Part shown: one piece after another, positions 14,301 to 35,743 of the stretch
How positions within the stretch are numbered: the stretch's first letter is position 1
Layout: every line of letters starts with the position of its first letter
From: a virus
Lineage: Duplodnaviria; Caudoviricetes
Virus record (IMG/VR): IMGVR_UViG_3300044675_001003
Location: 1 to 60,044 of that record
Direction: 5' to 3' (one strand)
DNA: 60,044 nucleotides
Made by a program: the position numbers and the translations under genes
Notes under the pieces: model-generated
Seen by the model: only the letters and a program-made list of their open reading frames with translations
The model's database searches: none
What the model was told of the DNA's origin: nothing

Positions 14301-17300
14301 TAGACGTCATGTCGTTCATTACTGGTAAGGGTGCCATGTCAGAAGACTTGGCCCGTATCAAGATTAAGCCAGTCACTAAGGAAGTCAGAACGCCTCAGAG
14401 ACAGGCCACTCAGGCAGAGGCCAAGACCAAGACGCCCGGCAGGGAGCAGCAGTTCTTTAGTCTTGAGAAGCAGACTGGGACGGCGGCGTTTAAGAAGTTC
14501 TTTGGTAACAGTAAGGTTGTCGATGAAAATGGCAACCCGATGATTGTGTACCACGGCACCATTGTTCGACCAGATACCGAAGATGTGAAGGGTATGGGGG
14601 ACATCATGGCGTTTGACCGGATGTTTACTACTCAGTTCCGCAAGCCATCTATTGATACCGTTGGCAGCTTCTTTAGCACCAACCCCGGTGAAGGTGGCGC
14701 CCAGATGTACTCCGGTACTGGCGAAGGCGCTGCGGTCTATCCCGTGTACTTGTCTATCAAGAACCCATACACCACAACATTTGAAACAATGTTAAGACGC
14801 GCCCGCATGATGGAAAACGGCGTGGACGATGGCCGCAAGATTGGTGCAAAAGAAGTTGCAGCCCTGCGTAAGTTCTTAAAGGAAACCGGCAAAGATGGCA
14901 TCCACATCAAGGCCGATCCAAAGAGCGCTGAGTTTAAAGATCAGGACGTCTGGATTGCTTTAGAGCCAGAGCAAATCAAATCAGCCACAGGTAACCGTGG
15001 TACGTTTGATGAGTCTGCCAACATTTCTATGAGCATTGAAGGCAAGAAACTGCCTCCAGGACGTTCGCCAGAGCTGGCCGCTGCAGCCCGCCAAGTCAAA
15101 GAAGGCAAGATGACGGCAGCCGAGTTTGACGAGATGGTCAACAAGTACAGACCTATTCGTCCATACGAAGCACCATTGAAGCCCGCAACAACGGCCCAGA
15201 TGGTTGATGCTTTAAGCTCCGAGAAAAAAGATAAGGTTAACCCTGACATTCCAGAAGGCACCCGTGTTGGCCTGCGCTTAGACATCCCAGCGTTCAATCG
15301 CAAGGGCGTCTATGTTGTGACCATCCACGAAAAAGGAAACGCCAGCGGCCCCGGTAAAGCTATTGGCTATGACAGCGTAGCGGTAATTAACAATGTTAAT
15401 TTCGGTACTGGCAGCCAGAAGAAAGCTTTGAACATTGCTACTGGTGAAGCCAAGGATGCGCTGCAGACCATGGAAGGTGAGTTCGTTAAGAGTGATCCGG
15501 ACGCCGTTTATGCGGCTGCATTGAAGGCCATGGATGACCCATCTTGGACTCAGATTGGTGTAGACCCTACTCGCCACGCTTACTTCTTTGATCGCAATAC
15601 AACCCAGCCGGTTATAGCTGCCGAGCAAGTTATCCAGATTGGCAACACAGTATTAGCCAAGAACGTAACCTACGGCAAGAAAGAAAGCTTCCTCTACAAC
15701 CTTGGCGATGACATGGTCAGGCTTGTTAATCAGATAGCTGACAGCATTGCTGAAAACGAAAAGAAGCGTTCACCATCCTTTAAACGCACAGCCAAGACTC
15801 TTACAAGGCAGCGTGGCGAAGGAAAGATTACTGATGAGGAATACCTCGACCGCATGAATGCCGCCATTGAGGAGGACGAAGAAAGCCGCCTCGATAAGGG
15901 AGTGCCGCAGCGCGTTCGTGGTGCTGACTTTATTCGTGAGAAGTTGCTTAATGCTAAACGCAGGAAAATGATTACTGCAGAAGGCGTTGATTTAGCCGAG
16001 TGGTTTATCCAGCAAAACCCTGCTTTGGTTGACGATCTTGGCATCAGCGTTGTGGGCAAAGGACTGGCCGGCGTTGGCGGTTTCTATAACTCTGACGCTC
16101 GCATCATTAACCTGATCAAAGATGCCGGATCAAGCCAGACGGCTACGCACGAAATCTTGCACCACCTTGAGCGCATGATGCCGACCGACATTCAGAATGC
16201 CATTCGCAAGGCATGGCTGACCCAGCTGCTGAAGGCTAACAAGGCCGCTAAAGACCCAGCCCAGCGTTTGTACTTCATGGCGCTGCTGGATGCCCACATT
16301 GGCAACAACAACCATGATCGCTTGGAAATACCAAAAGACTTAGAGAAGATTTACAAATCAGCCGTAAAGCAAATGCAGTTTGCTAGTGCGCTTGCTGGAG
16401 ATCCTTTTGGTTCGTCAAAGAGTAGCGATTTAGCAAAAAATCTTTTGCTGTATTCACCTACCGTAACGAACGACCTTTACGAGTACTTTGATCCGTCAGA
16501 GTTCTGGGCGGTCAACGGATCTGACATTGTTCAAGCCCGCTACGAGGCTGTTAAGGGCGGCGTGTTGGCCAAGCTTAAAAACTGGCTGCGTGAGTTTACC
16601 CAGAAGATCAAATCATTGCTGGGCCTGAAGTCTGACGCATCCATCATTCGTGCATTGGATAGCTTGGCCAAGTCTGATGGTAAGTTTGTGACCAGAAAAA
16701 TGCTGGGCACCGGCGAGTACCGAAGCATTGAGCGCCGCAACTACGAAGGTGGTGAAGCGCCAGAGCCGGACATGGAAATCCCAGAGATGTCGTTCATGGA
16801 CGATGTGATCTACAAGTACGGCGATAAGCTAATCGACACCAAGCGTTTGATTCAATCTATTCAGAGCACCGGCAGAAAGATTGATGAGCGTTTTGACGCC
16901 TACATGAAGGAAGAGAACTACCATGGCCGTCTGGCCAAGCGTACTAAGAACTTCCTTAATGAAGAAATGCGTCCAGTGCTTGAGGAAATGCAAGAGAAAA
17001 ACGTGACGCTGGATGAGCTCGAAACGTTCTTGCTCAACCGCCACGCCAAAGAAGCCAACGCATACATTGCTAAGATCAACCCAGTAGGTTTTCCAGAGGC
17101 TGGCTCCAGCGTTTCAGATGAGGCTGCCGATAAGTACATGGCGGAGTTGACGCCAGAGAAGCGCAAAGATCTTATGGCCCTTGCAGCCAAGGTCGATGCT
17201 ATTGTCAAAGAGACTCAGCGCGTTTTGGTGGCCAATGGCCTTGAGACTCAGGACACAATTGACGAGTGGAATAAGACATACAAGAACTATGTTCCGCTAC

Positions 17301-19450
17301 AGCGTGACAACCTTGACTTTGTCCACACTGGCCGTGGCGTGATGGGTGGTTTTGGTACCCGTGGTTCAGCTTCTAAGCGCCGTGTTGGTTCTGATAAGCC
17401 AGTCATTGACATCTTTGCCAACATTGCTATGCAGCGTGAGCGCGCTTTGCGTAGGTCTGAGCAGGCCCGTGTTGGCCGCGCTTTGTATGGCATGGCTATC
17501 AAGCATCCAAATCCCGGCTTTTGGTTGGCCATCAATCCTGATGCCATCAAGGACAAGGAAAAGCTGGAAGCCGAGCTTATCTCTCTGGGCCTTACGCCTG
17601 AAGATGCTCGGAGCATTATCCAAGAGCCGCGCCAGCCAATGTTTGATAAGAAGACTGGTCAGGTTAAGTATCAGGTTAACCCCCTGCTGCGCGACAGCCC
17701 TAACGTCTTCCCTATCCGCATTAACGGCGAAGACCGCTTTATCTTCTTTAATCCGAATGACCCCCGTGCATTGCGTATGGTTGAGTCAATAAGGAACCTT
17801 GACACCGAAAGACTGGGCGATGCAATTGGTATGGCCAGCATGGTCACCCGCTGGTTTGCTTCTGTTAATACCCAGTACAACATCGTGTTCGGTGCTGTTA
17901 ACTTCTTGCGCGACCTTAGTGCTGCATCCCTTAACTTGTCAACAACAGAGATTGCTGGCAAGGAAAAGAAAGTGCGGGCCAACGTGCTGCCGGCCCTGCG
18001 CGCAATCTATCGTGATCTGCGCGGTAAAGGTGCGACTACCGAAACGATGGCAGAAATGCAAAATTGGTTTGAGCGTTTCCAGCTGGCCGGCGGTCAGACT
18101 GGTTACCAGAATCAGTTTGCAGAAACAAAACGTAAAGGCAATGTTGTTGAGCAAGAGCTGCGGCGCCTCAACCGTGGCAACGTCAAGAAGTCTGTTGATG
18201 CGGTATTTGACTGGCTGTCAGACTACAACGATGCCATCGAGAATTCGATTCGTTTGTCTGCGTTTAAGGTTGCTGTTGAAAGCGGTTTGAGCGAAGACAA
18301 GGCGGCCAGCATTGCCAAGAACCTGACTGTTAACTTTAACCGTAAGGGTGCTAGGACTGGCTTTATCTCCGCCTTGTATGCGTTCTTTAACGCTGCTGTC
18401 CAAGGTAGTACTCGCATGGTGGAAACTCTGCGCGGGCCCATGGGTAAGAAGATCATCTTTGGCGGTATGCTCCTTGGATCTATGCAGGCCATTGCTTTGG
18501 CCATGGCTGGGTTTGATGATGATGAGCCACCAGAGTTTGTCAAAGACAAAAATCTGATCATTCCAATCCCATTTACAGACAAAAAGTATTTGTCTATTCC
18601 AATGCCATTGGGTTTCAATATGTTCCCCGGCTTTGGTCGCCTTGCCATGGAGACATTGCTCATTGAAACCGGCATGATCAGAAGCCGCAAAGGCCCGGGC
18701 GATAAGGTCATGAGCGCGGTGTCTTTGGTGTTTGATGCGTTCAACCCGCTGGGTGGTTCTGGCAATCCTTTGTTGATGGCTGTGCCCACAATTGGCGATC
18801 CGTTTGCTGCGATCTACAGCAACAAAGATTCCTTTGGACGCCCAATCTACAAGGAAGACAGAGGCACAGCGCCTACGCCCGGTTACGAGCGTTCGCGTGA
18901 GAATGCCAGCATCTTGAGTAAGAAGCTTGCCGAAGCAATTAACTATGTAACTTCGCCAGCAGGCACCAAGCACACTAAAGGATTCTTTAGTCCTACTGCT
19001 GATGAAATTGACTACTTCATTGGTCAGATCACCGGTGGTGTTGGTCGAGAAATCATGAAAGTTGGTGAGTTTGCTAAGTCAAAGGCGGTCACTCAAGAAG
19101 AGGTACCAGCGTACAAGCTGCCGGTGGTTGGCCGCTTCTACGGCGAGGCCGAGTCACCAGCTGCTACGCGATCAAGGTTTTATGAGAATGTAACCGTGAT
19201 GGCCAAGCATGAGTATGAGATCAAGGGCCTGCGTAAGGATAGGATAAGCCCAGCTGAATACGTCAAAGCCAACCCAGAGGCCAGGTTGTGGCAGCGGGCT
19301 AACAATGTTGAGAATCAGATCGTCAAGCTAAATAAAGAGAAGAAAGCGCTGCTTGAGAGGGATGCCCCAAGGGAGGCGGTCAAGCGCAAGGAAGATGAAA
19401 TCTTAAAGAAGATGACTGAGTTCAACAATCAGGTTAGACGGGGCCAATAA
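8372..19450 (+). CDS. Giant polyvalent ejected protein (3692 aa): SAP-like motif, three ART-like domains, YkuD L,D-transpeptidase, zincin metallopeptidase, C-terminal LPD38-like region
   Basis: ART-PolyVal signature FKKFFGNSKVVDENGNPMIVYHGT...VYPVYLSIKNPY...QIKSATGNRGTFD; HSVW...SFGCINV; HEILHH; NLTVNFNRKG...YAFFNAAVQG. Confidence 0.8.
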   Translation: MQRAVNPQTGEVLFLVDNQWISPAQKAKNEKGDTAYLVGNKWEVVEAPVTEQPSGIASVAPRAANTMTADEYLQQVAAREARGYDRTLGGSLIDTGVTFLKGAIGLPEAFVGLADIPTAGYAGKLLEQAGYKPKEAKEILDTYLSEAQQAANRKLKQAEGFGGAVAAALQNPSTIATAVGESIPQMLGGAAVARGLMKAAPGLAPYLAGAAGEGLLGAGAAAEQIRQQSEDKLLSGKQIVSALGSGAGTAAFGAAGGKLAAKFGLDDIDTLLAAGAGKGGVKSVKDFAIKATASGITEGLFEEMPQSAQEQMWMNYATDKPLFQGVPEAAGMGFVTGAAMGVGATGLGRRKQTEQGLPSVAPEAELTPTPTTPPEAGITSLMPQEPTPPAPPAGPAEAVQAPGSEAMDTQAMLEELINSVNYPQEKAPEVVAEKQLTQEEIDKQDQQDRFLAEMQDLQDDVSDRDDKYFETSPAKPESVKLYRGVPKGQEGRETVGGALFMSPDRDIAEQYAGPGGKVTEESRTFDNILDAPTWANAKQKLGLPQSATMADLVNAAREAGHDGVTFKTTNGQEYIAINKAPKAPTTTLETREEYPALSKTEVEELGLAPKPKVEKPKEPKIDYLNHPDNVGSDASSKREFDNKGKLQVAPQNIADGGTPFKSRAAADVARKNYPDMRVLPTADKKGFILAPKTPKQIEADKAKAKRLGLPMTTTKGTPMAAHQFITSEGGITKDAMKDLGMDENVRSGNRSLFTDTGMSVEQAYMKLQEAGYLEEGATQNDARNLITESVKKPKYRQQDTEEMTKRAQQADYEDYLKAEEEASLYSPVDEEMGYEMGDFDGTGYESASPEVQAEVRALLAQADALGINTESIKEEIFYETENQSVQAYYKAFKSALEDAITAGRQDRIEDTGQPGGEGAGFELTAPTADEIRTKQAETERRAKEEERANKAAEDKARADEQAAEFTLTGSDRAADVAAARGQRDIFAEAPAETPVETPKAQTEQERTVTLTKKEFREDKETRGKSDHPALKMVFKGEAPKSLIAKYGEKDVRFLGRLFDIDVKDKFNVAKKLIAIDSGLSLIRGKDKAYFDKMNKAQLGEFLEAVGQSAYGQKYQLVERLLKHEGNVMGKFNDNLQDLKHRAAVLNEARAGKPISEEVLKDYPDVAAYSLPRDSEGYKAAIRTLAVRALPTLGMDTPATIAAYREDAKTTKDPLEKNVANDIADYMESYYKSQQEKSNQTMAKLGSGTGPTMGEMIAENKRVKAQLAALEKGEEAPVDNKKEIADLRAEQKVLIRQIIKAGLQETPEQEARMGEISKRLDELEGRAPVKQAEKPEVKQRSVEEIRKELEDLQDQASEEFNKDKKKKLASDIYKLQAELTAAEGRAARAAAEGKSQSKNKLDDPAEFEKALKGFEDAYGDPESALSELNYYKNTVDSLIKKGGSIYRVLFVKSINDIDEKNLGNYWTVHSSNIDRYGDNLSDNADEGTQLYVVQAKVPPNSISNQGVDISGNPDEEEVNIVANKDDITYTVHEYSNKRMGPAIRELGKTEAETEAAEEAAEEAIRNKAEAEIDEGPIGQAIAKIENGDIETKAQIRSLIVKLERDGTLDDVEDVREGLSDREQDASEVLDTLSGLLDDARDNAIDERFDELLEERAQDEVLPAEEPQIAGQVGFEPYTIEGDFTEVAEEQQRLMLEDQTENLSDDQVSTLEKHYGATIDSDEFFTKLREDVTNFIVKGATAVNGKIRAIIRQLANGVLAVGIAFNPQYMSQPINVFMPVDNVRTEEVLAQVPDAATDKMSEPAKRAFAVIYPALQEQMVAKDKLFIMADKPSGRVFIFNPDGSLLLEKKSLFGLAKGDLYVGDNEKPQNRITPAGLFDLKFVDAAKGAAEKRTAGDYDTGTVLAINDPEGTITIMHSVWLKEKDAAQRAAALRNDSPADSRYSFGCINVDAPTYKFLVDNHAQQMDGAALFIVPEAGVDVMSFITGKGAMSEDLARIKIKPVTKEVRTPQRQATQAEAKTKTPGREQQFFSLEKQTGTAAFKKFFGNSKVVDENGNPMIVYHGTIVRPDTEDVKGMGDIMAFDRMFTTQFRKPSIDTVGSFFSTNPGEGGAQMYSGTGEGAAVYPVYLSIKNPYTTTFETMLRRARMMENGVDDGRKIGAKEVAALRKFLKETGKDGIHIKADPKSAEFKDQDVWIALEPEQIKSATGNRGTFDESANISMSIEGKKLPPGRSPELAAAARQVKEGKMTAAEFDEMVNKYRPIRPYEAPLKPATTAQMVDALSSEKKDKVNPDIPEGTRVGLRLDIPAFNRKGVYVVTIHEKGNASGPGKAIGYDSVAVINNVNFGTGSQKKALNIATGEAKDALQTMEGEFVKSDPDAVYAAALKAMDDPSWTQIGVDPTRHAYFFDRNTTQPVIAAEQVIQIGNTVLAKNVTYGKKESFLYNLGDDMVRLVNQIADSIAENEKKRSPSFKRTAKTLTRQRGEGKITDEEYLDRMNAAIEEDEESRLDKGVPQRVRGADFIREKLLNAKRRKMITAEGVDLAEWFIQQNPALVDDLGISVVGKGLAGVGGFYNSDARIINLIKDAGSSQTATHEILHHLERMMPTDIQNAIRKAWLTQLLKANKAAKDPAQRLYFMALLDAHIGNNNHDRLEIPKDLEKIYKSAVKQMQFASALAGDPFGSSKSSDLAKNLLLYSPTVTNDLYEYFDPSEFWAVNGSDIVQARYEAVKGGVLAKLKNWLREFTQKIKSLLGLKSDASIIRALDSLAKSDGKFVTRKMLGTGEYRSIERRNYEGGEAPEPDMEIPEMSFMDDVIYKYGDKLIDTKRLIQSIQSTGRKIDERFDAYMKEENYHGRLAKRTKNFLNEEMRPVLEEMQEKNVTLDELETFLLNRHAKEANAYIAKINPVGFPEAGSSVSDEAADKYMAELTPEKRKDLMALAAKVDAIVKETQRVLVANGLETQDTIDEWNKTYKNYVPLQRDNLDFVHTGRGVMGGFGTRGSASKRRVGSDKPVIDIFANIAMQRERALRRSEQARVGRALYGMAIKHPNPGFWLAINPDAIKDKEKLEAELISLGLTPEDARSIIQEPRQPMFDKKTGQVKYQVNPLLRDSPNVFPIRINGEDRFIFFNPNDPRALRMVESIRNLDTERLGDAIGMASMVTRWFASVNTQYNIVFGAVNFLRDLSAASLNLSTTEIAGKEKKVRANVLPALRAIYRDLRGKGATTETMAEMQNWFERFQLAGGQTGYQNQFAETKRKGNVVEQELRRLNRGNVKKSVDAVFDWLSDYNDAIENSIRLSAFKVAVESGLSEDKAASIAKNLTVNFNRKGARTGFISALYAFFNAAVQGSTRMVETLRGPMGKKIIFGGMLLGSMQAIALAMAGFDDDEPPEFVKDKNLIIPIPFTDKKYLSIPMPLGFNMFPGFGRLAMETLLIETGMIRSRKGPGDKVMSAVSLVFDAFNPLGGSGNPLLMAVPTIGDPFAAIYSNKDSFGRPIYKEDRGTAPTPGYERSRENASILSKKLAEAINYVTSPAGTKHTKGFFSPTADEIDYFIGQITGGVGREIMKVGEFAKSKAVTQEEVPAYKLPVVGRFYGEAESPAATRSRFYENVTVMAKHEYEIKGLRKDRISPAEYVKANPEARLWQRANNVENQIVKLNKEKKALLERDAPREAVKRKEDEILKKMTEFNNQVRRGQ
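9618..9636. promoter_or_regulatory. Palindrome TAATTAACAGTGTTAATTA (dispersed motif, copy 1)
   Basis: Perfect 19-bp inverted repeat inside the giant CDS; the core ATTAACASTGTTAAT recurs elsewhere. Confidence 0.6.
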
Positions 19451-19736: not shown

Positions 19737-19848
19737 AGCACACCCAGCGGTTGCCTTTTGGATCTACAAGTTTGCCGTGGTCTAAGGGTTTGGAATGCTC
19801 ACAGGTAGCGCAGTAGCGTTTACCGTAGATCCTCATGTTTTCTGACAT
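19654..19848 (-). CDS. Small Zn-finger protein
   Basis: CATC...WVCYDC; resembles 28240..28428. Confidence 0.5.
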   Translation of the reverse strand: MSENMRIYGKRYCATCEHSKPLDHGKLVDPKGNRWVCYDCKPNVSKRKTTKSRKAPAVPALRGE

Positions 19849-20029
19849 TGCGTTTGCCTTTCTTGATTGCGGCCAGTCCTTCTTCGGGCTCTTTTCTAGC
19901 TTCCATCCATTGATCGGCTATTTCGTATGCTGCCTCGGCTAGGTTGTCACCTTCCCTGTTACGGATGATGAGCCCGGCCAAAGCAAACATAGACGCCAGA
20001 TCTCGCAGATTGGTGTCGTGTTCAGTCAT
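19820..20029 (-). CDS. Small phage protein (LRD..A..A...AY..AD family)
   Basis: LRDLASMFALAGL...AYEIADQWMEAR; distant paralogue of 26190..26408. Confidence 0.6.
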   Translation of the reverse strand: MTEHDTNLRDLASMFALAGLIIRNREGDNLAEAAYEIADQWMEARKEPEEGLAAIKKGKRNVRKHEDLR

Positions 20030-20253
20030 TAGTGAACCTCTTTATCGGTATGTTCCTTGCGGATGTTTCTAAGCGTGTCGCGGAAAGCAGCCGTTGCCTG
20101 CTCGTCATCGTCCATGCCCAGCTCTACCAGCAACTCACAAAGAAGCTTACTCAATGAAATGACTGCAACGATTGGATCTTCGCATTCTGTGTTCATCAGG
20201 GCAGAGCTCAGAGCTTTGTCCATGTCCATTACTTGGTCAGTGATGTCTTTCAT
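20029..20253 (-). CDS. Hypothetical protein
   Basis: Translationally coupled to both neighbours; GGAG RBS. Confidence 0.55.
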   Translation of the reverse strand: MKDITDQVMDMDKALSSALMNTECEDPIVAVISLSKLLCELLVELGMDDDEQATAAFRDTLRNIRKEHTDKEVH

Positions 20254-20525
20254 CGCATCTCCAGTTCTTTGATCTGATCGGCCAGCACATCGGCCAAGTA
20301 CTTACCGCGAACGGCAATGTGCTCGATCTCTTTGATGGTGTCGATCTCTTTTATACAGTCTTTGAGCGCCTTGTTGTACCCGGACTTAAAAGTATCGTCA
20401 CCATCAACGATCATGCAAATAGCGTCCCGCACCATGCTGGATGCTTTACGCTGCTTGGCTAGTTCCTTGATCTTGTCGTGATACTCCACTGGTAAATAGA
20501 CGCTGTAAGGGATTAGTTTCTTCAT
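20250..20525 (-). CDS. Ribbon-helix-helix DNA-binding protein
   Basis: KKLIPYSVYLPVEYHDKIKELAKQRKASSMVRDAI has the beta-alpha-alpha RHH pattern; GGAGG RBS. Confidence 0.6.
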   Translation of the reverse strand: MKKLIPYSVYLPVEYHDKIKELAKQRKASSMVRDAICMIVDGDDTFKSGYNKALKDCIKEIDTIKEIEHIAVRGKYLADVLADQIKELEMR

Positions 20526-20944
20526 GCTTTCCTCCAAGCTTCGAAGCTGGTTCGCAATTGATTGAATAAATGGCGGGCTTCTTCGTTGGTCTTAAGCTCT
20601 TTGCGGGACTCTATGTCCAAGTAGGATGCGATCCAACTGGCACAAGCCTTCTCGTTCTTCTCCATTAGCCACTCTTTCTGGTGCAGCCAGTCCCAAAACT
20701 CTGGATCACGGCACAGAATGCCGGCCAGCTTCACCGCATGATCCCCAGGAAACTCGTTCTCTCGGTTCATCGGTTGCTCATCATCACCCAGTCGCACCAT
20801 CACAACAATGTAGCGCGAGCCTACAAAGTCGCGCATAAGGTCGTTGTGCAGCTCGTCAGGGTGAACAGCCAAAGACAGCATATAGCCGTCCTTGGATTGC
20901 TTAAGCCCTGTTTTTATCGCTTCGAACTGTATTGGATCTGGCAA
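20522..20944 (-). CDS. Conserved hypothetical phage protein
   Basis: AGILCRDPEFWDWL...IESRKEL motif typical of phage recombination blocks. Confidence 0.6.
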   Translation of the reverse strand: MPDPIQFEAIKTGLKQSKDGYMLSLAVHPDELHNDLMRDFVGSRYIVVMVRLGDDEQPMNRENEFPGDHAVKLAGILCRDPEFWDWLHQKEWLMEKNEKACASWIASYLDIESRKELKTNEEARHLFNQLRTSFEAWRKA

Positions 20945-21134
20945 TTTGTAACTCCAAGTATTTGATGACGCCTACAGACATGGTCAGCTGCTCTTCCAGC
21001 TTGCCAACCTGTTCCTCAAAGTTGTCAATGATTGCGCGAAACTTAGCCTCATCTTCAATGCATGAATTAAGTGCGTTATTCAGGCTGTTGCAAACCTTCT
21101 CCCAGTCCTGAATGGTTTTTGGTTTCTTAGTCAT
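20901..21134 (-). CDS. Small coiled-coil protein
   Basis: MTKKPKTIQDWEKVC...; start reassigned to overlap the upstream stop. Confidence 0.5.
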   Translation of the reverse strand: MTKKPKTIQDWEKVCNSLNNALNSCIEDEAKFRAIIDNFEEQVGKLEEQLTMSVGVIKYLELQIARSNTVRSDKNRA

Positions 21135-21390
21135 CCCATGGATCCTTCGCGCTAGAGGCCGCTGGGGCTTCCTTCTTAAAGGTATCAAGCTTGAGGGTAA
21201 TCTTGCGTTTGCCGTCTGTATGCTTACCCAGCCAAGCGCCAAGCTTAATAACAATGTGATCTGTGTCTGCGTTTTCAAGCATATCCCGAACTAAGTCGAG
21301 CTCAAGCTTGATGTCGCCTTTCATGTCTGGTTGTGTGTCTGTCTTCTTGTAGTCGTTAGTCCACAAAGTACCGCGATTTGGATAGTCCAT
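21127..21390 (-). CDS. DUF736-like putative ssDNA-binding protein
   Basis: GTLWTN.YKK....PDMKG...GAW, acidic tail KDPWDD; follows ERF. Confidence 0.55.
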   Translation of the reverse strand: MDYPNRGTLWTNDYKKTDTQPDMKGDIKLELDLVRDMLENADTDHIVIKLGAWLGKHTDGKRKITLKLDTFKKEAPAASSAKDPWDD

Positions 21391-21400
21391 TAGTTACTCC

Positions 21401-22108
21401 TTAAAAAAATGATTTCTTAGCTGCTGAAAAGTTGTCAATGACGTCTGCATAAACAGATGGATTCAAAGCCTTAAGCTTGTCGTACATAGGCTTGTTCACT
21501 TGGAACATCTGTTTGAGCTGCTCGGCACTGGTGGCCATGCTGACCTTTAAGCTGTTGGCTGCAACCATCATGTCAACCCATGCTTCTGAACTTTCAGGGG
21601 CGTCAATGATGATCGTCCAAGCATCTGGTTCAACGTGCTGGGGTGGAATAGGGTCTGGGCGCTGTTTAACGGGCTTTTGGGCGGGTTTTGCAGCTGGCGC
21701 AGGGGTTTGTGTGGCCACAGGCTTTGGAGCTTCTACAGGAGGCGCGGAATCTACTGCATCCCCTTCCACAAGCTCCATGGCTGCCATCCATAAATAACGG
21801 CGTTGGTAGCTCAAAGTGGCGCCCAAATTTTGGATGGGGTGTGCACCTTTGAGGTTGGCCTCGGCCATTGGGCTGGTGATCACAATGACTGTGCCGTCAT
21901 CTACATCGGTGATGCACAGCTGGGCATACTCGGTGTTAAACGTCACGACACCGCACAGGCCAAGGTCGTTGAAGATGGTCTGAACATGGGGAATGAAGTC
22001 ACCCAGCTCGAAGTATGAGTAGCCTGCGAATTTATTCTGGCCAGACTTCTTCATGTCTACCGACAGAAGCTTGACCCTCGCTTGCATAAGTTTCTTATGA
22101 ACTGACAT
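21401..22108 (-). CDS. erf: ERF-family ssDNA annealing protein
   Basis: KKSGQNKFAGYSYFELGD...IQNLGATLSYQRRYLW...GDAVD. Confidence 0.85.
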   Translation of the reverse strand: MSVHKKLMQARVKLLSVDMKKSGQNKFAGYSYFELGDFIPHVQTIFNDLGLCGVVTFNTEYAQLCITDVDDGTVIVITSPMAEANLKGAHPIQNLGATLSYQRRYLWMAAMELVEGDAVDSAPPVEAPKPVATQTPAPAAKPAQKPVKQRPDPIPPQHVEPDAWTIIIDAPESSEAWVDMMVAANSLKVSMATSAEQLKQMFQVNKPMYDKLKALNPSVYADVIDNFSAAKKSFF

Positions 22109-22988
22109 TGTTTTCCTTTGTTGATAAATACTCTTTGTATTGGTTACAAAACCTACTGACAGAGCAAAACTCAGCGCATCGCGTTCTCTCTCCCTGCCTG
22201 ACTATGATTTCGTAATCCTTTCCATACTCGGCCACCTTGGCTTGAGCTTCCTCATCGGTATTGCAAACGTTTCTTGCTTTGACATTACCAATCTTTTTCA
22301 CTGCGTATGTTGTAGGCTTCTCCCAAGTCTGGTCGGGCGTACAAAACGGCAGCTCATCCCCTGTCTCCAAGTCAAATAATGCGTTGGAGTGTTCTTTGAT
22401 TCGTTCCTGAATGAATGTTTCGCGCTCTTCCATCGGCCATAAGCGAATGGGGATCACTTTGATCGGTGCGTCAGGGTAGTTGGCCTTCATGGCTGCATCA
22501 CGGCGTGACCAGTCTCTGATGATAGCTACGATCTCAAGCTTGGAAACCTTGGTCTGCTTAACTTTCTCCACAAGCCAAGCGTAGATGTTGAGCTGGTATT
22601 CCCAATCAATCTTCTCATTCATCACAGACCATGCGCCTGTGGTCTTGTAGTCATTGATTGTTAGAGTGCCGTCTTCATTGACGATCTGCAGATCAATAGC
22701 TCCAGAGATAGACCAGCCGTCAATCTTTGTGTGGAGGCGCTCTTCAATCAGGTGGTTCTCATCGGCACCATGCTCAAGAACGCCGTGAATAGCCGTCCCA
22801 AAGATAGACCAGACCATCTCTGTAACGTCAGTCTCGATCTTGTCTTCGTGTAGTTTACGCAGCTGGACAATGCGCGGTGAGTTAATTAACTCTGTTGCAG
22901 AGATGTTGGCCTTACCCTTGGAGTAGGTAGGCCGCTTCATGATATTCACGAAGGTCTGAGGTAGGTTGTATTTGTTTGTGATAATCAT
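22095..22988 (-). CDS. PD-(D/E)XK recombination exonuclease (Cas4-like C-terminal Cys cluster)
   Basis: GTAIHGVLE, ISGAIDL, DYKTT, QLNIYAWL, RCAEFCSVSRFC. Confidence 0.85.
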   Translation of the reverse strand: MIITNKYNLPQTFVNIMKRPTYSKGKANISATELINSPRIVQLRKLHEDKIETDVTEMVWSIFGTAIHGVLEHGADENHLIEERLHTKIDGWSISGAIDLQIVNEDGTLTINDYKTTGAWSVMNEKIDWEYQLNIYAWLVEKVKQTKVSKLEIVAIIRDWSRRDAAMKANYPDAPIKVIPIRLWPMEERETFIQERIKEHSNALFDLETGDELPFCTPDQTWEKPTTYAVKKIGNVKARNVCNTDEEAQAKVAEYGKDYEIIVRQGERTRCAEFCSVSRFCNQYKEYLSTKENNVSS

Positions 22989-23470
22989 GGCCGGCTCCTA
23001 TCTGCAATTTGTTGTAGCTCGCGTTTCTCAATGGTTAGCATTCCAGCCAGCTTTGAGATCTTTGCTTGGGCATCAGCATTCTTTTTGCGGCCTTCGTCAG
23101 TCAGCAGCTCGGTCTTGGTAAAGCTCACGCCCATGGCCATGCGCTTCATCTCTCGGCCAATAGCCTTTACCCCAACATCAACTGCGTGTTGGGTTTGGGA
23201 TTCGGGCTCAATGATGATGTAGTTGCCGGCGTGATCGCTGACCATCAACATACAGTGTGCTGTAAGCAGAATGTCTTTGATCTCTGTGATGCAGCGCAGC
23301 ACCTCAAGGTCATACCGGCGTACATCGTTAATGTCCACTGGCTTTGGAACCTCGCACAATTCAGAAATGTAACTGCGCTTAAGTACGCTGCCGTATGTCA
23401 GGCCGCTGTCCAACAGGGTTCTGACCGCTTGCTTCCAAGCTGGGAATAGTTTTGGGTTTTCGTCACTCAT
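22985..23470 (-). CDS. Accessory protein of the RAMP/pentamer-array locus (predicted winged helix + coiled coil)
   Basis: ATGA-coupled to the RAMP-like gene; YGSVL...L..IKDILL...GNYIIIEP pattern followed by a helical C-terminus. Confidence 0.55.
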   Translation of the reverse strand: MSDENPKLFPAWKQAVRTLLDSGLTYGSVLKRSYISELCEVPKPVDINDVRRYDLEVLRCITEIKDILLTAHCMLMVSDHAGNYIIIEPESQTQHAVDVGVKAIGREMKRMAMGVSFTKTELLTDEGRKKNADAQAKISKLAGMLTIEKRELQQIADRSRP

Positions 23471-24036
23471 GCGAACTCCACATTAAAACGTCCAAAACGT
23501 GGGCGGTAGTCACCCAAACCAATCAAGGCGCCAGCATCAACCAAAGCCTTTTTAACTTCGTTAACATTGACTACATCCTCATTCACCATCACAGTGGCAG
23601 AGAGTGACCAGTTGCGAAAGATGGGGCGGTATCGCATGATCTTGGCCATGCCAACCTTAACGCCACGGGCATCCACATTCTTTGGGTTTTCCCAAAGTTT
23701 CTCTGGAGTTGTGTTCTTAAACCCGTCAAGAGGAAGCTCGTCTTCCAAGACCTGGACGCCTTGCTTAAACTTAACACCCAGCTTCTGGAGCTTGGCTGCA
23801 GCAATCAAGCATGAGTCAAGGTTCTGTGCTGGGATAAAGAATCCAGTGTCTTCGTTCCAGTAGCAGCCGCCAATGAATTCACTCTTGGCAATGGCAATAA
23901 AGTCATCGTCAGTTTTCTTGCGTTTGCCAGTCATCTCTTTATGAGCCTTGGCCAGCGGGTCTAGCGGGTTTGCAAAACGATCAGAGTGCATGAGTAAAGC
24001 AGCTGATCCCGTGATTTTTACAGATATGGATTTCAT
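23467..24036 (-). CDS. RAMP/Cas7-like RNA-binding protein (Vipr-like)
   Basis: N-terminal strand ISVKITGSAALLMH, IPAQNLDSCL helix (RAMP IP-x-S-like), thumb D.R.V.V...IMRYRPIF, C-terminal Gly-rich loop GALIGLGDYRPRFGRF; AGGA RBS; downstream of the pentamer array. Confidence 0.75.
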   Translation of the reverse strand: MKSISVKITGSAALLMHSDRFANPLDPLAKAHKEMTGKRKKTDDDFIAIAKSEFIGGCYWNEDTGFFIPAQNLDSCLIAAAKLQKLGVKFKQGVQVLEDELPLDGFKNTTPEKLWENPKNVDARGVKVGMAKIMRYRPIFRNWSLSATVMVNEDVVNVNEVKKALVDAGALIGLGDYRPRFGRFNVEFA

Positions 24037-24067
24037 TTTTAGTTCCTAAGTTGGTTGATGCACAGTT

Positions 24068-24540
24068 TGCATCGACCATGAAACTGTTGCCAATTTCATA
24101 GCCGCTACATTAGCCCTTGACTCGCCGAACCATTCCTTACCAAGCCCGTCCCGACCCGGCCATGCCTCGCCTTTCCCGGCCAGACCTCTCCGTACCACTA
24201 ACACTCGAAGTGGTACTGTTACCAATACCCTATCGACTGTTGCCAGTTCCATGCCCGACCCGTCCTTACCTTTCTACGCCGTGCCACGCCGGGCCCAACC
24301 GCCCATGCCAAACACTCGAAGGAACACTCTTTAGAATGTTCTATCGGCTGTTGTCAGCCCCTGCCAATCCCCGCCGTGCGATGCAACACCCAACCAGCGC
24401 CGAACCGTGCCGTACCAGACCATGCGATACCCAAACGAAACACTCGAAGGATGACTGTTACCAATCACCTATCGGCTGTTAAGCTCCTTGTTATGCCTTG
24501 CCCGACCGAGCCTGACCGCTCCGCGCCGAACCAAACCACG
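24068..24540 (-). ncRNA. Array of four GG(T/C/A)-NN pentamer tracts, each followed by a conserved hairpin (candidate guide RNAs)
   Basis: Tracts at 24122-24196 (15 in-phase units), 24246-24309, 24356-24435 and 24493-24537; near-identical 42-nt hairpins at 24200-24241, 24311-24352 and 24439-24480; degenerate fourth hairpin at about 24068-24109. Confidence 0.85.
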
Positions 24541-24578
24541 TTGTATAAATTCAATTGATCAGTTACAATCGGCAACAC

Positions 24579-24608
24579 ATTGTACCCACATACTTTCATG
24601 TCTTGCAA
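24579..24608 (-). promoter_or_regulatory. sigma70-type promoter driving the array and RAMP operon
   Basis: Minus strand TTGCAA-18 nt-TACAAT. Confidence 0.65.
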
Positions 24609-24627: not shown

Positions 24628-25089
24628 ATGATTAAGATTGGAATAGATCCTGGCCTGTCTGGCGCCATCGTTGTTTTTAACAATGACATCCCAGTGATAT
24701 GGGAAAGGATGCCCACTATGAAAATAGGTTCGGCCAATCGTGTAAATGCTTCTGCGTTGGCTGCAATTATTTGGCCGTTAGCTTCTTCGGGTAAAGAAGT
24801 CAAGGCGTATGTCGAGCTAGTGAGTAGTATGCCCGGCCAAGGCGTGGCTTCGATGTTCTCATTCGGCCACTCAGCTGGTGTGATCCAAGGTGTGCTCGGT
24901 GCGCATGAAGTCCCTGTAATGATGGTTACCCCTCAATCATGGAAGAAGCGCGCGGGGCTGGTTGGCAAAGACAAGGATGCTTCTAGGACGTTGGCCATCC
25001 GGATGTGGCCGTTCTGGAGGGAGCTTGATAAAAAGGGAGCCGGCCAAGCGTATGCAGATGCAGCATTCATTGCACTTTACGGAGATTGA
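24628..25089 (+). CDS. RuvC-like Holliday junction resolvase
   Basis: IGIDPGLSGAI, YVELVSSMPGQGVASMFSFG, PQSWKK, ADAAFIA. Confidence 0.85.
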   Translation: MIKIGIDPGLSGAIVVFNNDIPVIWERMPTMKIGSANRVNASALAAIIWPLASSGKEVKAYVELVSSMPGQGVASMFSFGHSAGVIQGVLGAHEVPVMMVTPQSWKKRAGLVGKDKDASRTLAIRMWPFWRELDKKGAGQAYADAAFIALYGD

Positions 25090-25097
25090 TGTAGAAT
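25070..25097 (+). promoter_or_regulatory. Putative promoter for the small RNA
   Basis: TTGCAC-16 nt-TAGAAT. Confidence 0.45.
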
Positions 25098-25101
25098 AAA
25101 T

Positions 25102-25173
25102 TCCGGCAAGCAGTTGCCACTCTCCTTTGTTGGGTTTGTCCTTTCCCCCGGGCTAATCACTCGGGGGTTTTTT
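25102..25173 (+). ncRNA. ~70-nt sRNA with anti-SD seed (ACTCTCCTTTGTTGGGTTT) and intrinsic terminator
   Basis: 5' hairpin GGCAA-GCAG-TTGCC; single-stranded CU-rich seed; CCCCCGGG...CTCGGGGG-T6 terminator. Confidence 0.6.
25145..25173 (+). terminator. Rho-independent terminator
   Basis: CCCCCGGG-CTAATCA-CTCGGGGG-TTTTTT. Confidence 0.8.
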
Positions 25174-25174
25174 C

Positions 25175-25193
25175 ATATTAACAGTGTTAATAT
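25175..25193. promoter_or_regulatory. Palindrome ATATTAACAGTGTTAATAT (copy 2)
   Basis: Perfect 19-bp inverted repeat. Confidence 0.65.
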
Positions 25194-25301: not shown

Positions 25302-25376
25302 GTGGTAAGCGGGTTAGCGCCGCTTGTTTTTCCTTTTTCGGTTTTTACACAAACACTGCTTCATGTGCCCACCAAC
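25298..25376 (+). ncRNA. Structured RNA motif copy A (GG-GTTAGCG-CC loop ... AACAC-TGCTTCAT-GTG)
   Basis: Closing stem GTTGGTGG/CCACCAAC followed by T8; same loops as copy B. Confidence 0.55.
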
Positions 25377-25393
25377 TTTTTTTTCATAGGGTA

Positions 25394-25422
25394 TTGCACA
25401 ACGCAAATATCTTTGATATAAA
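25394..25422 (+). promoter_or_regulatory. sigma70 promoter with extended -10
   Basis: TTGCAC-17 nt-TATAAA preceded by TGn. Confidence 0.65.
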
Positions 25423-25423
25423 C

Positions 25424-25548
25424 GAGCTGTTACTGTTGCGAGTGACAGCTTGAGGCCACTTATGGCTATATTCCGCCTTACCTAATGCTTTCGTGGGAGA
25501 GATATTAGGCAAGGTCGCAACCGGAATGTAGCCTTAAGTGGCCTTTTC
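25424..25548 (+). ncRNA. Leader hairpin plus long bulged hairpin with complementary GTTGCGA/TCGCAAC elements (C4/CI-like antisense architecture)
   Basis: Loop GTTGCGA at 25435-25441; TCGCAAC bulge at 25515-25521 in the stem 25453-25475/25522-25544; another TCGCAAC at 25643-25649. Confidence 0.5.
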
Positions 25549-25554
25549 TATTTT

Positions 25555-25637
25555 GAGACTGGGACTGTGCGGTGGGTTAGCGCCACTGGACGGTAAATGT
25601 TTTGAAAACACTGCTTAATGTGAGCAGTCCCAGTCTC
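25555..25637 (+). ncRNA. Structured RNA motif copy B
   Basis: 13-bp perfect closing stem GAGACTGGGACTG/CAGTCCCAGTCTC; GGTGG-GTTAGCG-CCACT; AACAC-TGCTTAAT-GTG. Confidence 0.55.
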
Positions 25638-25976
25638 TCCTTTCGCAACGTAGCCGTCAGAGCGCGTTAGCTAATGACCTGTATGGGTTGAACTCAAGAA
25701 ACACAGAACCTCGGCGTGACCCGCGCCTCCTAGTAGAGCAATCGAACGGAATAAACAAGGAAGTCGAAAGACACATACCCTAGTACGCTGGGAGTTGATC
25801 GTTAAGGATGGTGCAAACTGACCTTATCGGGATCTCAGGGGAGGGCGGCTTGGCTGGCCGGTAGCTCACTTAACAACTGGGCAAAGCTCCTTGATAATGA
25901 GACGCTGATCCTTTAGCCTCCCAGTGGGGGAGGGAGGGTCAACGGGTAAGAGGGCTTTTAGGTGGTAACATAACAG

Positions 25977-28243: not shown

Positions 28244-28428
28244 ATGGGTTTGCAAAACAACAGCTATCAATCGGAAGTAAGCAGCCGGTGCATCAATATA
28301 AGGAGTGCAATTACTGCAACGAACTAAAGCCGCCAGAGGGTGGCATCCAACTTAGCCATACAAAGTGGCATTGCGCCTCTTGTTGGGCAGGCCGCGCATC
28401 TAAAAGAACATCAACAAAAGGAAAATAA
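28240..28428 (+). CDS. Small Zn-finger protein
   Basis: CNYC...KPPEGG...WHCASC. Confidence 0.55.
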   Translation: MNGFAKQQLSIGSKQPVHQYKECNYCNELKPPEGGIQLSHTKWHCASCWAGRASKRTSTKGK

Positions 28429-29252
28429 TGACCGAAAGAATTAAGCTGCAGAAGATCCGTTTGGACGGCGGCACACAACCACGCAAAGAGATTGACGAGC
28501 CCCTGGTTCAGCACTACACCGAGGTATTGCTAGAGGGCAAAGACAAGTTCCCGCCTATCGACCTTTGGTTTGATGGCAAGTCTTACTGGCCCAGCGATGG
28601 CTTTCACAGATTCCACGCACACAAGCGCGCAGGGTTCTTGGACATTGAGGCTGTAGTCAATCAAGGCACCAAGCGCGATGCTTTCTTGGCCTGCTTGAAA
28701 GCAAACGGCAAGCATGGTAAGCCACGCACCCCCGAAGAGCGCCGCTATGTGGTTCAGATGGCGTTAGAAGACATTGAGCTGGGCGAGAAGACCGATGTTG
28801 AGATTGCCCTGATCTGTGATGTATCGTCAATGACTGTTGGTCGTGTTCGCAAGGCCATGGGATTGGAAGCTGCTTCGCGGGTAGATAAGAATGGCCAGCG
28901 CGTGAACATAACTGGCCGTGGCCCCAAAGCGGCGCCAGAGCCCGAGCCCGAGTACACCGAAGACGATAAGATGCATGAGCTGGCCATCGAGCATACGGCA
29001 TTATCAGAAGAGAATACAAAGCTCAAAGATATGTTGGCCATCCGAACATTGCCTGTGTCTGAGAAGGCCAGGACAGAAGTTCAGGAAACCATAGAGTCGC
29101 TGCGGGCCGAGGTCAAAGATCTTGAGTTCAAGCTGCGTACCATGACCCAATCACGCAATGAGTTCCAGAGTAAGAATGCTGAGATGATCAAGCAATTAAA
29201 CTATTGGAAGAAGCGCGTTGAGAGGGCAGAAAAGGCACTAGAATCTAAATAA
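28428..29252 (+). CDS. ParB/Srx N-terminal domain protein with HTH and coiled coil
   Basis: TQPR...FPPIDLWFDG..YWPSDGFHRFHA; TDVEIALICDVSSMTVGRVRK HTH. Confidence 0.8.
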   Translation: MTERIKLQKIRLDGGTQPRKEIDEPLVQHYTEVLLEGKDKFPPIDLWFDGKSYWPSDGFHRFHAHKRAGFLDIEAVVNQGTKRDAFLACLKANGKHGKPRTPEERRYVVQMALEDIELGEKTDVEIALICDVSSMTVGRVRKAMGLEAASRVDKNGQRVNITGRGPKAAPEPEPEYTEDDKMHELAIEHTALSEENTKLKDMLAIRTLPVSEKARTEVQETIESLRAEVKDLEFKLRTMTQSRNEFQSKNAEMIKQLNYWKKRVERAEKALESK

Positions 29253-31824: not shown

Positions 31825-32445
31825 TTAACCTCCAAAGTTGGGTGGTGAGTGAGTGAAGCCGGCGGCTTCAAAGAATTTATCAATGTTTTCGCATAGGTGA
31901 AAGAACTCGTCTTCGTCTTCTTCGTTGTCGGTAACTGGGTGCAGCTGATCCATGTCTGTGCAGAAATCGACCCCGTCCCTGTAGTGGCCAATGAAGCCCA
32001 CGCCCTGTTCTATGTATGTGGCCTCGACCTTGAATCCCATGGCCTCTAGAGCGTGATAGATGCCCCCGGGCGGGCACCAAGCTGTGTCAAAGTAAATCGT
32101 CACGGCATTACCCTCGATCTCGTAAACCTCGGGGCTGTCTGCAATGCTCATGTCCCACTTGGTGCCCCATTCTGCCATGCAGAAGCCATGCCAATTTTTA
32201 TAGCCGTAATGCTTTAGATTGTCGGCCTCTAGGGCTTCGAGCTCGGCCTGCTCGGCGGTACCTTTGCCAAGAAACCCGGCTGTAATTTTTAAGTCTTCAG
32301 GCACCGGGCGGATCATTTGAAAGATCGCGGGGTTTTCTTTCGCGGCAACAGCGCGCGCCAGCTCTTGCACAATTTCAGCAAGTTTTTTCTCTGAGTCGGC
32401 ATTTGTTGCGACAATTTTTAATGAGTTTGAGCACCAATTTGGCAT
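31825..32445 (-). CDS. YubB/DUF1281 ferredoxin-like domain protein
   Basis: MPNWCSN...WGTKWD...FDTAWCPP...YIEQGVGFIG. Confidence 0.8.
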   Translation of the reverse strand: MPNWCSNSLKIVATNADSEKKLAEIVQELARAVAAKENPAIFQMIRPVPEDLKITAGFLGKGTAEQAELEALEADNLKHYGYKNWHGFCMAEWGTKWDMSIADSPEVYEIEGNAVTIYFDTAWCPPGGIYHALEAMGFKVEATYIEQGVGFIGHYRDGVDFCTDMDQLHPVTDNEEDEDEFFHLCENIDKFFEAAGFTHSPPNFGG

Positions 32446-32469
32446 TTAAAAATCTCCGTTTTGTTGGGT

Positions 32470-32488
32470 TAATTAACACTGTTAATTA
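32470..32488. promoter_or_regulatory. Palindrome TAATTAACACTGTTAATTA (copy 3)
   Basis: Perfect 19-bp inverted repeat just upstream of the RBS of 32445. Confidence 0.65.
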
Positions 32489-32490
32489 GG

Positions 32491-32549
32491 AAATAGCCTC
32501 GTTCTACTGGCTAGAATGGGTCAATAAATAGCCTCGTTTTGCCAGCTTG
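32491..32549. repeat. AAATAGCCTCG direct repeats (also at 31437-31460)
   Basis: 32491-32514 matches 31437-31460 at 22/24; third copy from 32526. Confidence 0.6.
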
Positions 32550-32611
32550 TATGCTGGTCTTGCGGGCTGCCTGTCCGGCCCGGGGGCCGGTGCGTGGTGG
32601 GCGGCGGGTGG

Positions 32612-32800
32612 TTAGTGCTGGGCCTCGTTATATCCCAGCGCGTAGAGTCTGCGGGCCTCGGCCCGGTCGGCCTCTGCTTCGAGGGCCAGCAGAAAATTAA
32701 AGTTTTGCATTGCAGCCCGGGCGCGCGCTGCGTTGTTTTGCATGATGGCCCGGGCCACTTTGTGGCCGGCCTCGGTGTAGGTGTGCTCAGTTTGTTTCAT
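32612..32800 (-). CDS. Small early protein
   Basis: Ala-rich 62-aa ORF in the co-oriented early block. Confidence 0.55.
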   Translation of the reverse strand: MKQTEHTYTEAGHKVARAIMQNNAARARAAMQNFNFLLALEAEADRAEARRLYALGYNEAQH

Positions 32801-32954
32801 TGTGAACCTTCAGGGCCTCGCGGGCCAGCTCAATTGCTACGGCTAAATTTTCCACGCGCGCCGTGTCGGGCATATCGGGCCCGGCTTGCTCGGCGTAGAA
32901 AATAAGCGACTTGAGCGCTTCGCGGATTGTTTCGGGTTTTGTGTGCCAATTCAT
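32787..32954 (-). CDS. Small early protein (55 aa, MNWHTKPETIREAL...)
   Basis: GGAG RBS; fills the gap between neighbours. Confidence 0.5.
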   Translation of the reverse strand: MNWHTKPETIREALKSLIFYAEQAGPDMPDTARVENLAVAIELAREALKVHNETN

Positions 32955-33163
32955 TATTTACTCCATGCGGAAAGCAGCGGGCCGGCGTTGTATGCCGGCG
33001 CTGCAGGGTTTGAGAATAGGCCCGGGCCCCGGGTACGGCGGCCCCAAGCATCGCGGGCTGCAAGATTCACCAGCTGCCCGCGTTTAACTGCGTTATAAAC
33101 TTGATCGCGCGTGTATCCATCGGCCAGCAGCTGGGCCATGGTGCGCGGCTCTGTGATGCTCAT
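32954..33163 (-). CDS. Small early protein, HTH-like
   Basis: TMAQLLADGYTRDQVYNAVKRGQL. Confidence 0.5.
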   Translation of the reverse strand: MSITEPRTMAQLLADGYTRDQVYNAVKRGQLVNLAARDAWGRRTRGPGLFSNPAAPAYNAGPLLSAWSK

Positions 33164-33411: not shown

Positions 33412-33414
33412 GAT

Positions 33415-34107: not shown

Positions 34108-34110
34108 GGT

Positions 34111-34326: not shown

Positions 34327-34328
34327 GA

Positions 34329-34687: not shown

Positions 34688-34698
34688 TGTTTGCCCTT

Positions 34699-35037: not shown

Positions 35038-35062
35038 GGTTTTCCTTTTGGTTGGTTGGGGG

Positions 35063-35707: not shown

Positions 35708-35743
35708 AGAGTTCCTTTCGGTTGGGGTTAAACATGAATAACG

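Follow-up and report, generated by a model that had tools for sequence, protein, structure and literature searches.

We describe a conserved, structured element, read as plus-strand RNA, which carries an invariant core that is predicted to be unpaired and complementary to ribosome-binding sites, and which comparison among related phages shows to be tied to the 3' end of a ruvC-like gene. The explanation that we favor, and which we put forward tentatively, is that this is a 3'-UTR-linked base-pairing small RNA with an anti-Shine-Dalgarno-like seed, constituting a new family in uncultured lake phages. Given the complementarity of its core to a ribosome-binding site, the element probably dampens the translation of some early phage genes.

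The window, by which we mean the whole stretch of 60,044 bp that was analyzed, is the complete record of a tailed phage and contains genes for the large terminase, the portal and the major head protein. The large terminase is 52–56% identical to those of Pelagibacter phages HTVC027P and HTVC023P and of the lake phage DSL-LC04, and near-identical DNA was found in lake-water metagenomes. A search of sequencing runs identified 22 DNA runs (lake water or metagenomes) that match window DNA, together with two RNA runs containing 6% of the sampled words, which are represented by assembled contigs of relatives and cannot show RNA ends. The run contigs examined are mostly 85–95% alike to the window and are uninformative on RNA ends, strand or level at 25102-25173. 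With regard to a host, the element pattern gave four matches in genome contigs, all of them unrelated sequence as judged by context.

The element sits in the early and DNA-metabolism region of the genome. A leftward recombination module (19820-24036) encodes a PD-(D/E)XK exonuclease, Erf and an SSB-like protein, and is followed by a 590-bp repeat-rich spacer, the rightward RuvC-like gene, the element, and an 850-bp non-coding stretch, beyond which a set of rightward small early genes begins at 26026. The gene at 23467-24036 had been labeled a RAMP gene in the earlier note; we have dropped this label, as only phrog_4652 (function unknown) matches the product, with no families from either Pfam or NCBIfam. 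Elsewhere in the genome, positions 8372-19450 form one open reading frame of 3692 codons. The element itself, at 25102-25173, starts 13 nt after the ruvC stop and is therefore also the ruvC 3' UTR and terminator. The features of this region are as follows.

24628-25089, plus strand: RuvC-like Holliday-junction resolvase gene (phrog_1770, E=1e-33)
25070-25075, plus strand: possible weak -35, TTGCAC, inside the ruvC 3' end, with a 16-nt spacer to TAGAAT
25090-25097, plus strand: invariant TGTAGAAT, containing the -10-like TAGAAT; candidate promoter element or processing signal
25105-25118, plus strand: 5' hairpin, GGCAA / GCAG loop / TTGCC (scan and folding)
25119-25144, plus strand: unpaired C/U- and G/U-rich stretch (core 25122-25131, tail 25132-25144)
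25122-25131, plus strand: invariant core CTCCTTTGTT (majority fraction 1.00)
25145-25173, plus strand: intrinsic terminator with an 8-bp G+C-rich stem, 7-nt loop and T6 (scan and folding)
25178-25190, no strand assigned: palindrome TTAACAGTGTTAA adjoining the terminator

The small-RNA-like unit proposed earlier, made up of a 5' hairpin, an unpaired anti-Shine-Dalgarno-like stretch and a terminator, is present and strongly conserved among relatives; its 18-mer seed CTCTCCTTTGTTGGGTTT was located at 25120-25137, and both the hairpin and the terminator of the putative RNA were recovered by scan and by folding. The terminator stem-loop spans 25145-25167, has G-C at seven of its eight pairs, and is followed by T6, so that 25145-25173 has the G+C-rich hairpin and T-run on the transcribed strand that define a Rho-independent terminator; no T-run follows the hairpin on the minus strand. 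All 23 distinct variants that we collected (see below) fold as hairpin, unpaired core and terminator, with a mean unpaired probability of the core of 0.46–0.97 over the variants and 0.55 in the window. The arrangement looked for in small RNAs, with an accessible and conserved seed between conserved structures, is found here in the form of an invariant 10-nt core and two maintained hairpins.

Pairing is well preserved across the alignment, with 91.9% of the cells paired as opposed to 31–59% when the partners are slid by one to three columns. For the terminator alone the figure is 92.4%, and two of its pairs have changed on both sides in a compensatory manner. Hairpin 1 is paired in 91.1% of cells over the 23 variants and includes wobbles, with C-G replaced by U-G in 10 of the 23 variants and A-U by G-U in two. 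As these wobbles would be mismatches on the other strand, they point to the plus-strand RNA as the selected molecule. We also considered a minus-strand reading, in which the complement resembles a ribosome-binding site, but it has neither a usable start codon nor a conserved frame (0–29 codons across loci), and the hairpin-1 wobbles, which are unpaired on that strand, contradict it as well.

Occurrence of the element was assessed in several ways. A RuvC protein search returned 44 viral-contig loci, of which 27 were examined; the element is 3' of ruvC in all 16 of those with RuvC identity of at least 69%, and in none of the 11 more distant ones (49–61% identity). A DNA pattern search identified 33 viral contigs, including one chance match by context and two copies cut by a contig end, and the 23 distinct variants were taken from the remaining viral contigs together with the window. 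A looser pattern in which TGTAGAAT was not required gave 119 matches in metagenome contigs, 80 of which were listed; 19 of these 80 loci match a covariance model, and the other 61 are chance matches to the 18-base pattern. Among the matches listed, all 19 metagenome copies carry TGTAGAAT in spite of its not being required, and all 19 follow a RuvC homologue (69–86% identity). Altogether, the element is present in 31 related viral contigs and at least 19 metagenome contigs, each time directly 3' of ruvC. The covariance model finds a single copy in the window (100.7 bits, the next best being 10.4) and one copy in each of five larger relatives.

Both TGTAGAAT and the core are invariant in all 23 distinct variants. 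Among 17 aligned sequences, conservation is 1.00 for TGTAGAAT and the core, 0.94 for the hairpin and 0.71 for the tail after the core, as compared with 0.79 for ruvC third codon positions and 0.61 for the sequence past the palindrome. By this comparison the element is conserved beyond neutral drift, and is thus real and under selection. The tail is variable, and in relatives reads GGGTTTG, GGATTG, GGTTG, GAGGTTTAC, TTAAG, AAT or TAT. TGTAGAAT, which has a single copy in the window, overlaps the ruvC stop in three different registers with its position kept, which indicates a nucleic-acid signal and not a coding constraint.

A promoter dedicated to the RNA, as suggested in the earlier note, is plausible on these sequences and is borne out in part: TAGAAT at 25092-25097 is present and is invariant in relatives, but the -35 is weak, and a consensus scan reported no promoter at 25070-25097. 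The TTGCAC candidate matches a -35 at three of six positions (read by eye), and its TTGC is invariant in 17/17 aligned sequences, where it also encodes Ile-Ala; in the type represented by L002, L056 and L074, the candidate -35 is displaced by a 9-nt deletion. A conserved CCGG lies 6–8 nt downstream of TAGAAT (read by eye). TAGAAT is followed without a gap by the predicted 5' hairpin in the GGCACC subtype, an arrangement that fits a ruvC 3' UTR better than a separate start. The terminator is common to the ruvC mRNA and the putative small RNA, and ruvC has no other.

Several further features of the flanking DNA were noted. The palindrome adjoining the terminator is, judging from its recurrence, probably a protein-binding DNA site and not part of the RNA. 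Palindromes of the form TTAACA(G/C)TGTTAA, often with AT-rich palindromic flanks, occur as 13-mers at 9621, 15387, 25178, 32473, 36867, 47099 and 56064; with up to two mismatches there are 20 strand-matches against 1.5 expected, and the sequence was also noted in G001, G003 and G005. Some copies are intragenic, one is directly after the small RNA terminator, and one is directly before the leader of the gene starting at 32445. Relatives have palindromic variants (TTTTCAGTGAAAA, TTATCAGTGATAA, CTAACAGTGGTAG), each in several copies within its own genome. The palindrome resembles an operator or a centromere-like site to which a DNA-binding protein of the phage would bind, and the product of the ParB-like gene (28428-29252) is a candidate for this protein.

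On the other side of ruvC, the spacer at 24040-24600 contains three copies of a 51-nt unit, spaced 111 and 128 nt apart, plus C-rich short repeats; in relatives this position is instead occupied by a short leader and by an additional gene, which is the first leftward one. Back-to-back promoter-like sites occupy 24543-24608 between the leftward module and ruvC, one on the minus strand (TTGCAA-18-TACAAT, 24608-24579, from the scan) and one on the plus strand (TTGTAT-17-TACAAT, 24543-24571, by eye), and the block GGCAACACATTGTACCCACATA between the module and ruvC is nearly invariant in relatives. Within the 850-bp non-coding stretch, a promoter-like block (TTGCAC-17-TATAAA, 25393-25421) is kept in relatives and stands directly after the small RNA terminator in L046 and L077. 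It is followed by a hairpin with 23-bp arms (25453-25544, 91% complementary) and then a T-rich run, and there may be a second non-coding RNA of ∼130 nt within 25379-25560. An RNA-library contig of a relative spans 25655-25959. Direct repeats at 25311-25324 and 25574-25587, and at 25351-25367 and 25606-25622, are spaced by ∼255–263 nt and suggest a duplicated module inside the non-coding stretch. Further rightward, small genes in series (starts 26569, 26802, 27098 and 28043) share a coding junction, ..AAGGAGAAGAACACATG.., which encodes ..KLKEKN and then a stop that overlaps the start of the following gene; this cassette for translational coupling recurs, and is also seen in relatives (L004-L013 and L042).

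The invariant core, in RNA form CUCCUUUGUU, is exactly complementary to AACAAAGGAG, which consists of a Shine-Dalgarno sequence extended on its 5' side by A/C-rich bases. We searched 32 relative loci (330.5 kb) for the core complement, allowing at most one mismatch, and counted 74 occurrences at ribosome-binding positions, defined as directly before a reading frame of at least 40 codons, and 15 elsewhere, with ∼20 expected overall from composition. These sites precede about ten gene families, among them the gene after the exonuclease (erf or its replacement), the phrog_4652 gene, the first leftward gene after the leftward promoter, the first rightward small gene, the ParB-like gene and the homologue of the gene starting at 32445. 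As they are found at ribosome-binding sites of both strands, the proposal that targeting is restricted to leftward genes is not supported by the relatives. In the window the same 10-nt complement with at most one mismatch is not enriched (5 versus 5.1 expected), and the complement of the 18-mer has no other copy with three or fewer mismatches.

We also examined the relatives for co-evolution of the seed with its putative partners. At leaders with the core motif, pairing extends into the tail by 1.37 nt with a phage's own seed versus 1.36 nt with swapped seeds, and at the first leftward leader the own seed does no better than others, the mean fraction of other seeds that are equally good being 0.54. 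The extended seed claimed earlier is thus not supported in its GGGUUU half, which varies among relatives and has no own-genome advantage over swapped seeds. In some relatives (L055:2489-2821, L052:1255-1587 and L076:517-858) the first leftward gene beside ruvC, which is absent from the window, encodes a 110–113-aa protein with an RNA polymerase alpha C-terminal domain (PF03118, E=1e-14), and its ribosome-binding site in relatives, CAAAGGAGAG, is a 10-nt match to the small RNA.

Pairing in this genome was evaluated with RNAduplex, using the 26-nt unpaired stretch as the seed and 76 initiation regions taken from heuristic gene calls with two manual edits. A C/U-rich RNA of any kind will seem to pair with Shine-Dalgarno sequences, and seeds with shuffled flanks were used for comparison. 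The natural seed averages -14.4 kcal/mol over all initiation regions versus -12.7 ± 0.67 kcal/mol for flank-shuffled seeds (p=0.01). The longest contiguous Watson-Crick helices are 11 bp at the leader of the 32445 gene and 10 bp at erf, with the other 74 regions reaching at most 7 bp; seeds in which the CTCCTTT block was fixed and the flanks shuffled (400 shuffles) have a mean of 0.095 regions with at least 10 bp (p=0.005). Two other scoring schemes were discarded, namely RNAduplex with a 32-nt seed and 52-nt targets, which was replaced as it gave long looped duplexes, and Smith-Waterman scoring with G-U pairs, which was inflated for many ribosome-binding sites. The candidate target sites in the window, and one weak match, are listed here.

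32455-32471, minus strand: leader of the 32445 gene (AACCCAACAAAACGGAG), best candidate target; 11-bp helix plus GGAGA
22112-22122, minus strand: erf ribosome-binding site (CAACAAAGGAA), candidate target; 10-bp contiguous helix
26010-26019, plus strand: ribosome-binding site of the first rightward small gene, start 26026 (AACACAGGAG), candidate target; one mismatch to the core complement
28412-28423, plus strand: ribosome-binding site of the ParB-like gene (phrog_1033), start 28428 (CAACAAAAGGAA), candidate target
24044-24054, minus strand: leader of the 24036 gene (CCAACTTAGGA), weak match; rank 22 of 76, longest helix 7 bp

The duplex with the 32445 leader has an energy of -21.9 kcal/mol and ranks third of the 76. 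The erf ribosome-binding site falls inside the end of the exonuclease gene, and this junction sequence is conserved in many relatives. At the first rightward gene, L056 has an exact core complement, and most relatives conserve the site; homologues of the ParB-like gene in L054, L061, L064, L065 and L073 carry AACAAAGGAA, which in L054, L071 and L073 also takes the place of the window sequence in the homologous leaders of the 24036 type.

The earlier note had drawn a broader conclusion from six minus-strand leaders, proposing that an 18-nt seed including GUUGGGUUU pairs with CCAAC-N-GGA leaders of the leftward genes, that of the 24036 gene included, and shuts all of them off. All six leaders (of the genes starting at 32445, 35707, 35037, 31822 and 24036, and of erf) exist and read as quoted, and with these six the natural seed gives -17.1 kcal/mol versus -11.1 ± 1.7 kcal/mol for flank-shuffled seeds, a comparison that is partly circular because the leaders were picked for that match. 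Their ranks among the 76 regions are 3, 9, 21, 22, 26 and 40, such that four are ordinary by energy; by helix length, the 32445 gene and erf stand out as complementary to the RNA but the other four do not, their helices being no longer than 7 bp. CCAAC is present at -30 to -7 in 5 of 22 minus-strand genes, with 0.69 expected, and in 1 of 54 plus-strand genes, but the nominal p of 5e-4 becomes 0.52 upon Bonferroni correction over 1024 five-mers, and CCAAC-N0-6-GGA is not enriched in the window (10 observed versus 11.3 expected). The homologous leaders in relatives often lack CCAAC, and this, together with the variable GGGUUU tail and the presence of the motif on both strands in relatives, makes the coordinate shut-off of leftward genes improbable in our estimation. 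We note that four of the CCAAC leaders lie in a G+C-rich leftward module at 32001-36000 (57–58% G+C, as opposed to 46–52% elsewhere), which may be of separate origin.

In the explanation that we favor, a small RNA of ∼70 nt would lie within the ruvC transcription unit, at its 3' end. This RNA would originate either by initiation near G25105 at a dedicated promoter, whose -10 would be TAGAAT (25092-25097), or by processing of ruvC mRNA, and its 3' end would be that of the ruvC terminator. Pairing in trans with early ribosome-binding sites of the AACAAAGGAG type would block access of the ribosome; the best targets in this genome would be the 32445 gene and erf, and the gene at 26026 and the ParB-like gene at 28428 would be weaker ones. 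Because ruvC is a DNA-processing gene, the RNA would be expected to accumulate after early transcription, and so to help lower early translation.

The possibility that the element acts purely in cis, as a ruvC 3' UTR and terminator module lacking any targets in trans, is unlikely but stays serious because the element was never found apart from ruvC. Such a module could act by stabilizing the mRNA, by binding a protein, or by shielding the transcription of ruvC from the rightward promoter region next to it. Its position directly after ruvC in 16/16 close RuvC loci and, among the matches listed, 19/19 metagenome copies is as this would predict, as are the inclusion of the only ruvC terminator within the element, the abutting of the 5' hairpin on TAGAAT in one subtype, the lack of covariation between seed and leaders, and the arrangement in L046 and L077, where the terminator runs straight into the conserved promoter-like block. 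However, neither a terminator nor a stabilizer needs an invariant unpaired 10-mer, and the same can be said of TGTAGAAT, which ignores the reading frame. A cis role also does not account for a core that is exactly complementary to a recurrent ribosome-binding motif in the same phages, and the ruvC initiation region is outside the 25 best partners of the seed among the 76 regions compared with RNAduplex.

We also considered a resemblance of the element to the last ∼27 nt of 16S rRNA; the GGTAAC subtypes show it more strongly than the window copy, in which it is weak. A small RNA mimicking the 16S 3' end (the 3' strand of its final helix and the anti-Shine-Dalgarno tail) could be a broad competitor of ribosomes for Shine-Dalgarno sequences in phage or host, or could titrate a factor recognizing the 16S tail. 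In local alignment with the final 45 nt of E. coli rrsH, the GGTAAC subtypes score 24–28 (background p≤0.002) and many other variants 18, and the invariant GCAGTTG and CAC(T)CTCCTT coincide with the matching 16S blocks. The window copy scores just 16, though (background p=0.085), one of 10,858 background windows also reached 28, and the comparison was chosen after the sequence had been seen; in addition, Rfam searches listed no rRNA family for the element stretch, and the pairing partners in the hairpin differ from those in the rRNA helix. Mimicry of this general kind therefore seems to us highly improbable. A more specific version, which is speculative and to which we would give little credence, is that an uncultured and widespread group of lake phages carries a ruvC-fused miniature look-alike of the 16S 3' end, a hairpin plus an anti-Shine-Dalgarno tail lengthened by UUUGUU, which as a ribosome competitor would selectively withdraw early-gene ribosome-binding sites of the AACAAAGGAG type from translation. 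Were this true, the look-alike would be an RNA counterpart of the protein-based early shut-off in T4. Lastly, the element could be a functionless DNA relic, an antisense copy of the first leftward leader left behind by insertion or duplication of the ruvC cassette. In relatives, the plus-strand sequence immediately before ruvC indeed reads ACTCTCCTTTGGTTATAAT or TTCTCCTTTGTTGTATAAT, such that near-identical C/U direct repeats flank ruvC, but a relic would be expected to decay, yet the core is invariant in 23/23 variants when the adjoining tail varies, and is placed between two structurally maintained hairpins; we consider this extremely improbable. In the trans-acting explanation, the near-identical C/U blocks flanking ruvC in relatives, of which the upstream one is antisense to the first leftward leader, suggest that the RNA may have arisen by duplication of the antisense strand of its target.

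In the whole window, no Rfam family was found at the gathering threshold, and neither a tRNA nor a tmRNA was found; with a loose E-value there are only weak, terminator-driven matches (RF02278, PsrR1, AgvB and anti-hemB). The best of these for the element is RF02278 (Betaproteobacteria toxic small RNA), but at 19.7 bits (E=0.035 in a 121-nt search) against a gathering score of 50, we do not consider the element to be a member. Both are short RNAs in which a UCUCC-type C/U motif is followed by a terminator, and the match is confined to these two parts. The portion of the source cited here states the function of the RF02278 family in Burkholderia as unknown (PMC4603805).

There are parallels with small RNAs derived from the 3' ends of genes. 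In enterobacteria, DapZ and MicL are made from an internal promoter, and CpxQ and SroC by processing. Like these, the element is at the 3' end of a protein-coding gene with which it shares a terminator, and it has an unpaired seed between a 5' structure and a terminator hairpin with a U tail; it also has a candidate -10 placed, as in 3'-UTR-derived small RNAs, where the upstream reading frame ends or after that point. It differs in being phage-encoded, in having a seed that is anti-Shine-Dalgarno-like and not gene-specific, and in that its promoter or processing site is putative, and it has no sequence similarity to any of the four (no Rfam match at the gathering threshold). GcvB pairs, through a G/U-rich seed, with C/A-rich elements that precede the Shine-Dalgarno sequence. 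In the seed described here, UUUGUUGGGUUUG is likewise G/U-rich, and most of the match to the 32445 leader is to a C/A-rich stretch ahead of its Shine-Dalgarno sequence, but the G/U-rich tail is unconserved in the element and the conserved part covers the Shine-Dalgarno sequence itself. T4 RegA and RegB are proteins that take part in the shut-off of early mRNAs; early phage messages would similarly be silenced here at their ribosome-binding sites, with an RNA as the proposed effector.

Searches of the literature on phage small RNAs that act at ribosome-binding sites or have an anti-Shine-Dalgarno sequence, supplements aside, yielded no ruvC-linked phage small RNA. As described in the relevant part of one source, few phage-encoded regulatory RNAs are known, and these mostly come from prophages of model bacteria (PMC4933390). 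The lambda small RNA LPR1/PreS regulates host genes, according to the cited part of a preprint (bioRxiv 10.1101/2024.10.31.621285), and the PAK_P3 RNAs sRNA1 and sRNA2 are intergenic, with perfect 11-nt matches given in the cited part as the sole target evidence (PMC4933390). All of these, and the element with its putative transcript, are short phage RNAs for which base pairing has been proposed or shown; unlike the element, none of the lambda and PAK_P3 RNAs is described in those parts of the sources as linked to ruvC or as having an anti-Shine-Dalgarno core.

The element is thus a clear and conserved candidate for a regulatory RNA in an uncultured lineage of freshwater phages, with a simple seed and named candidate targets. 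If the trans-acting explanation is true, it would show that phages can use an RNA directed against ribosome-binding sites to schedule the shut-off of their early genes, and the element would provide a new RNA family for the annotation of metagenomic phages.
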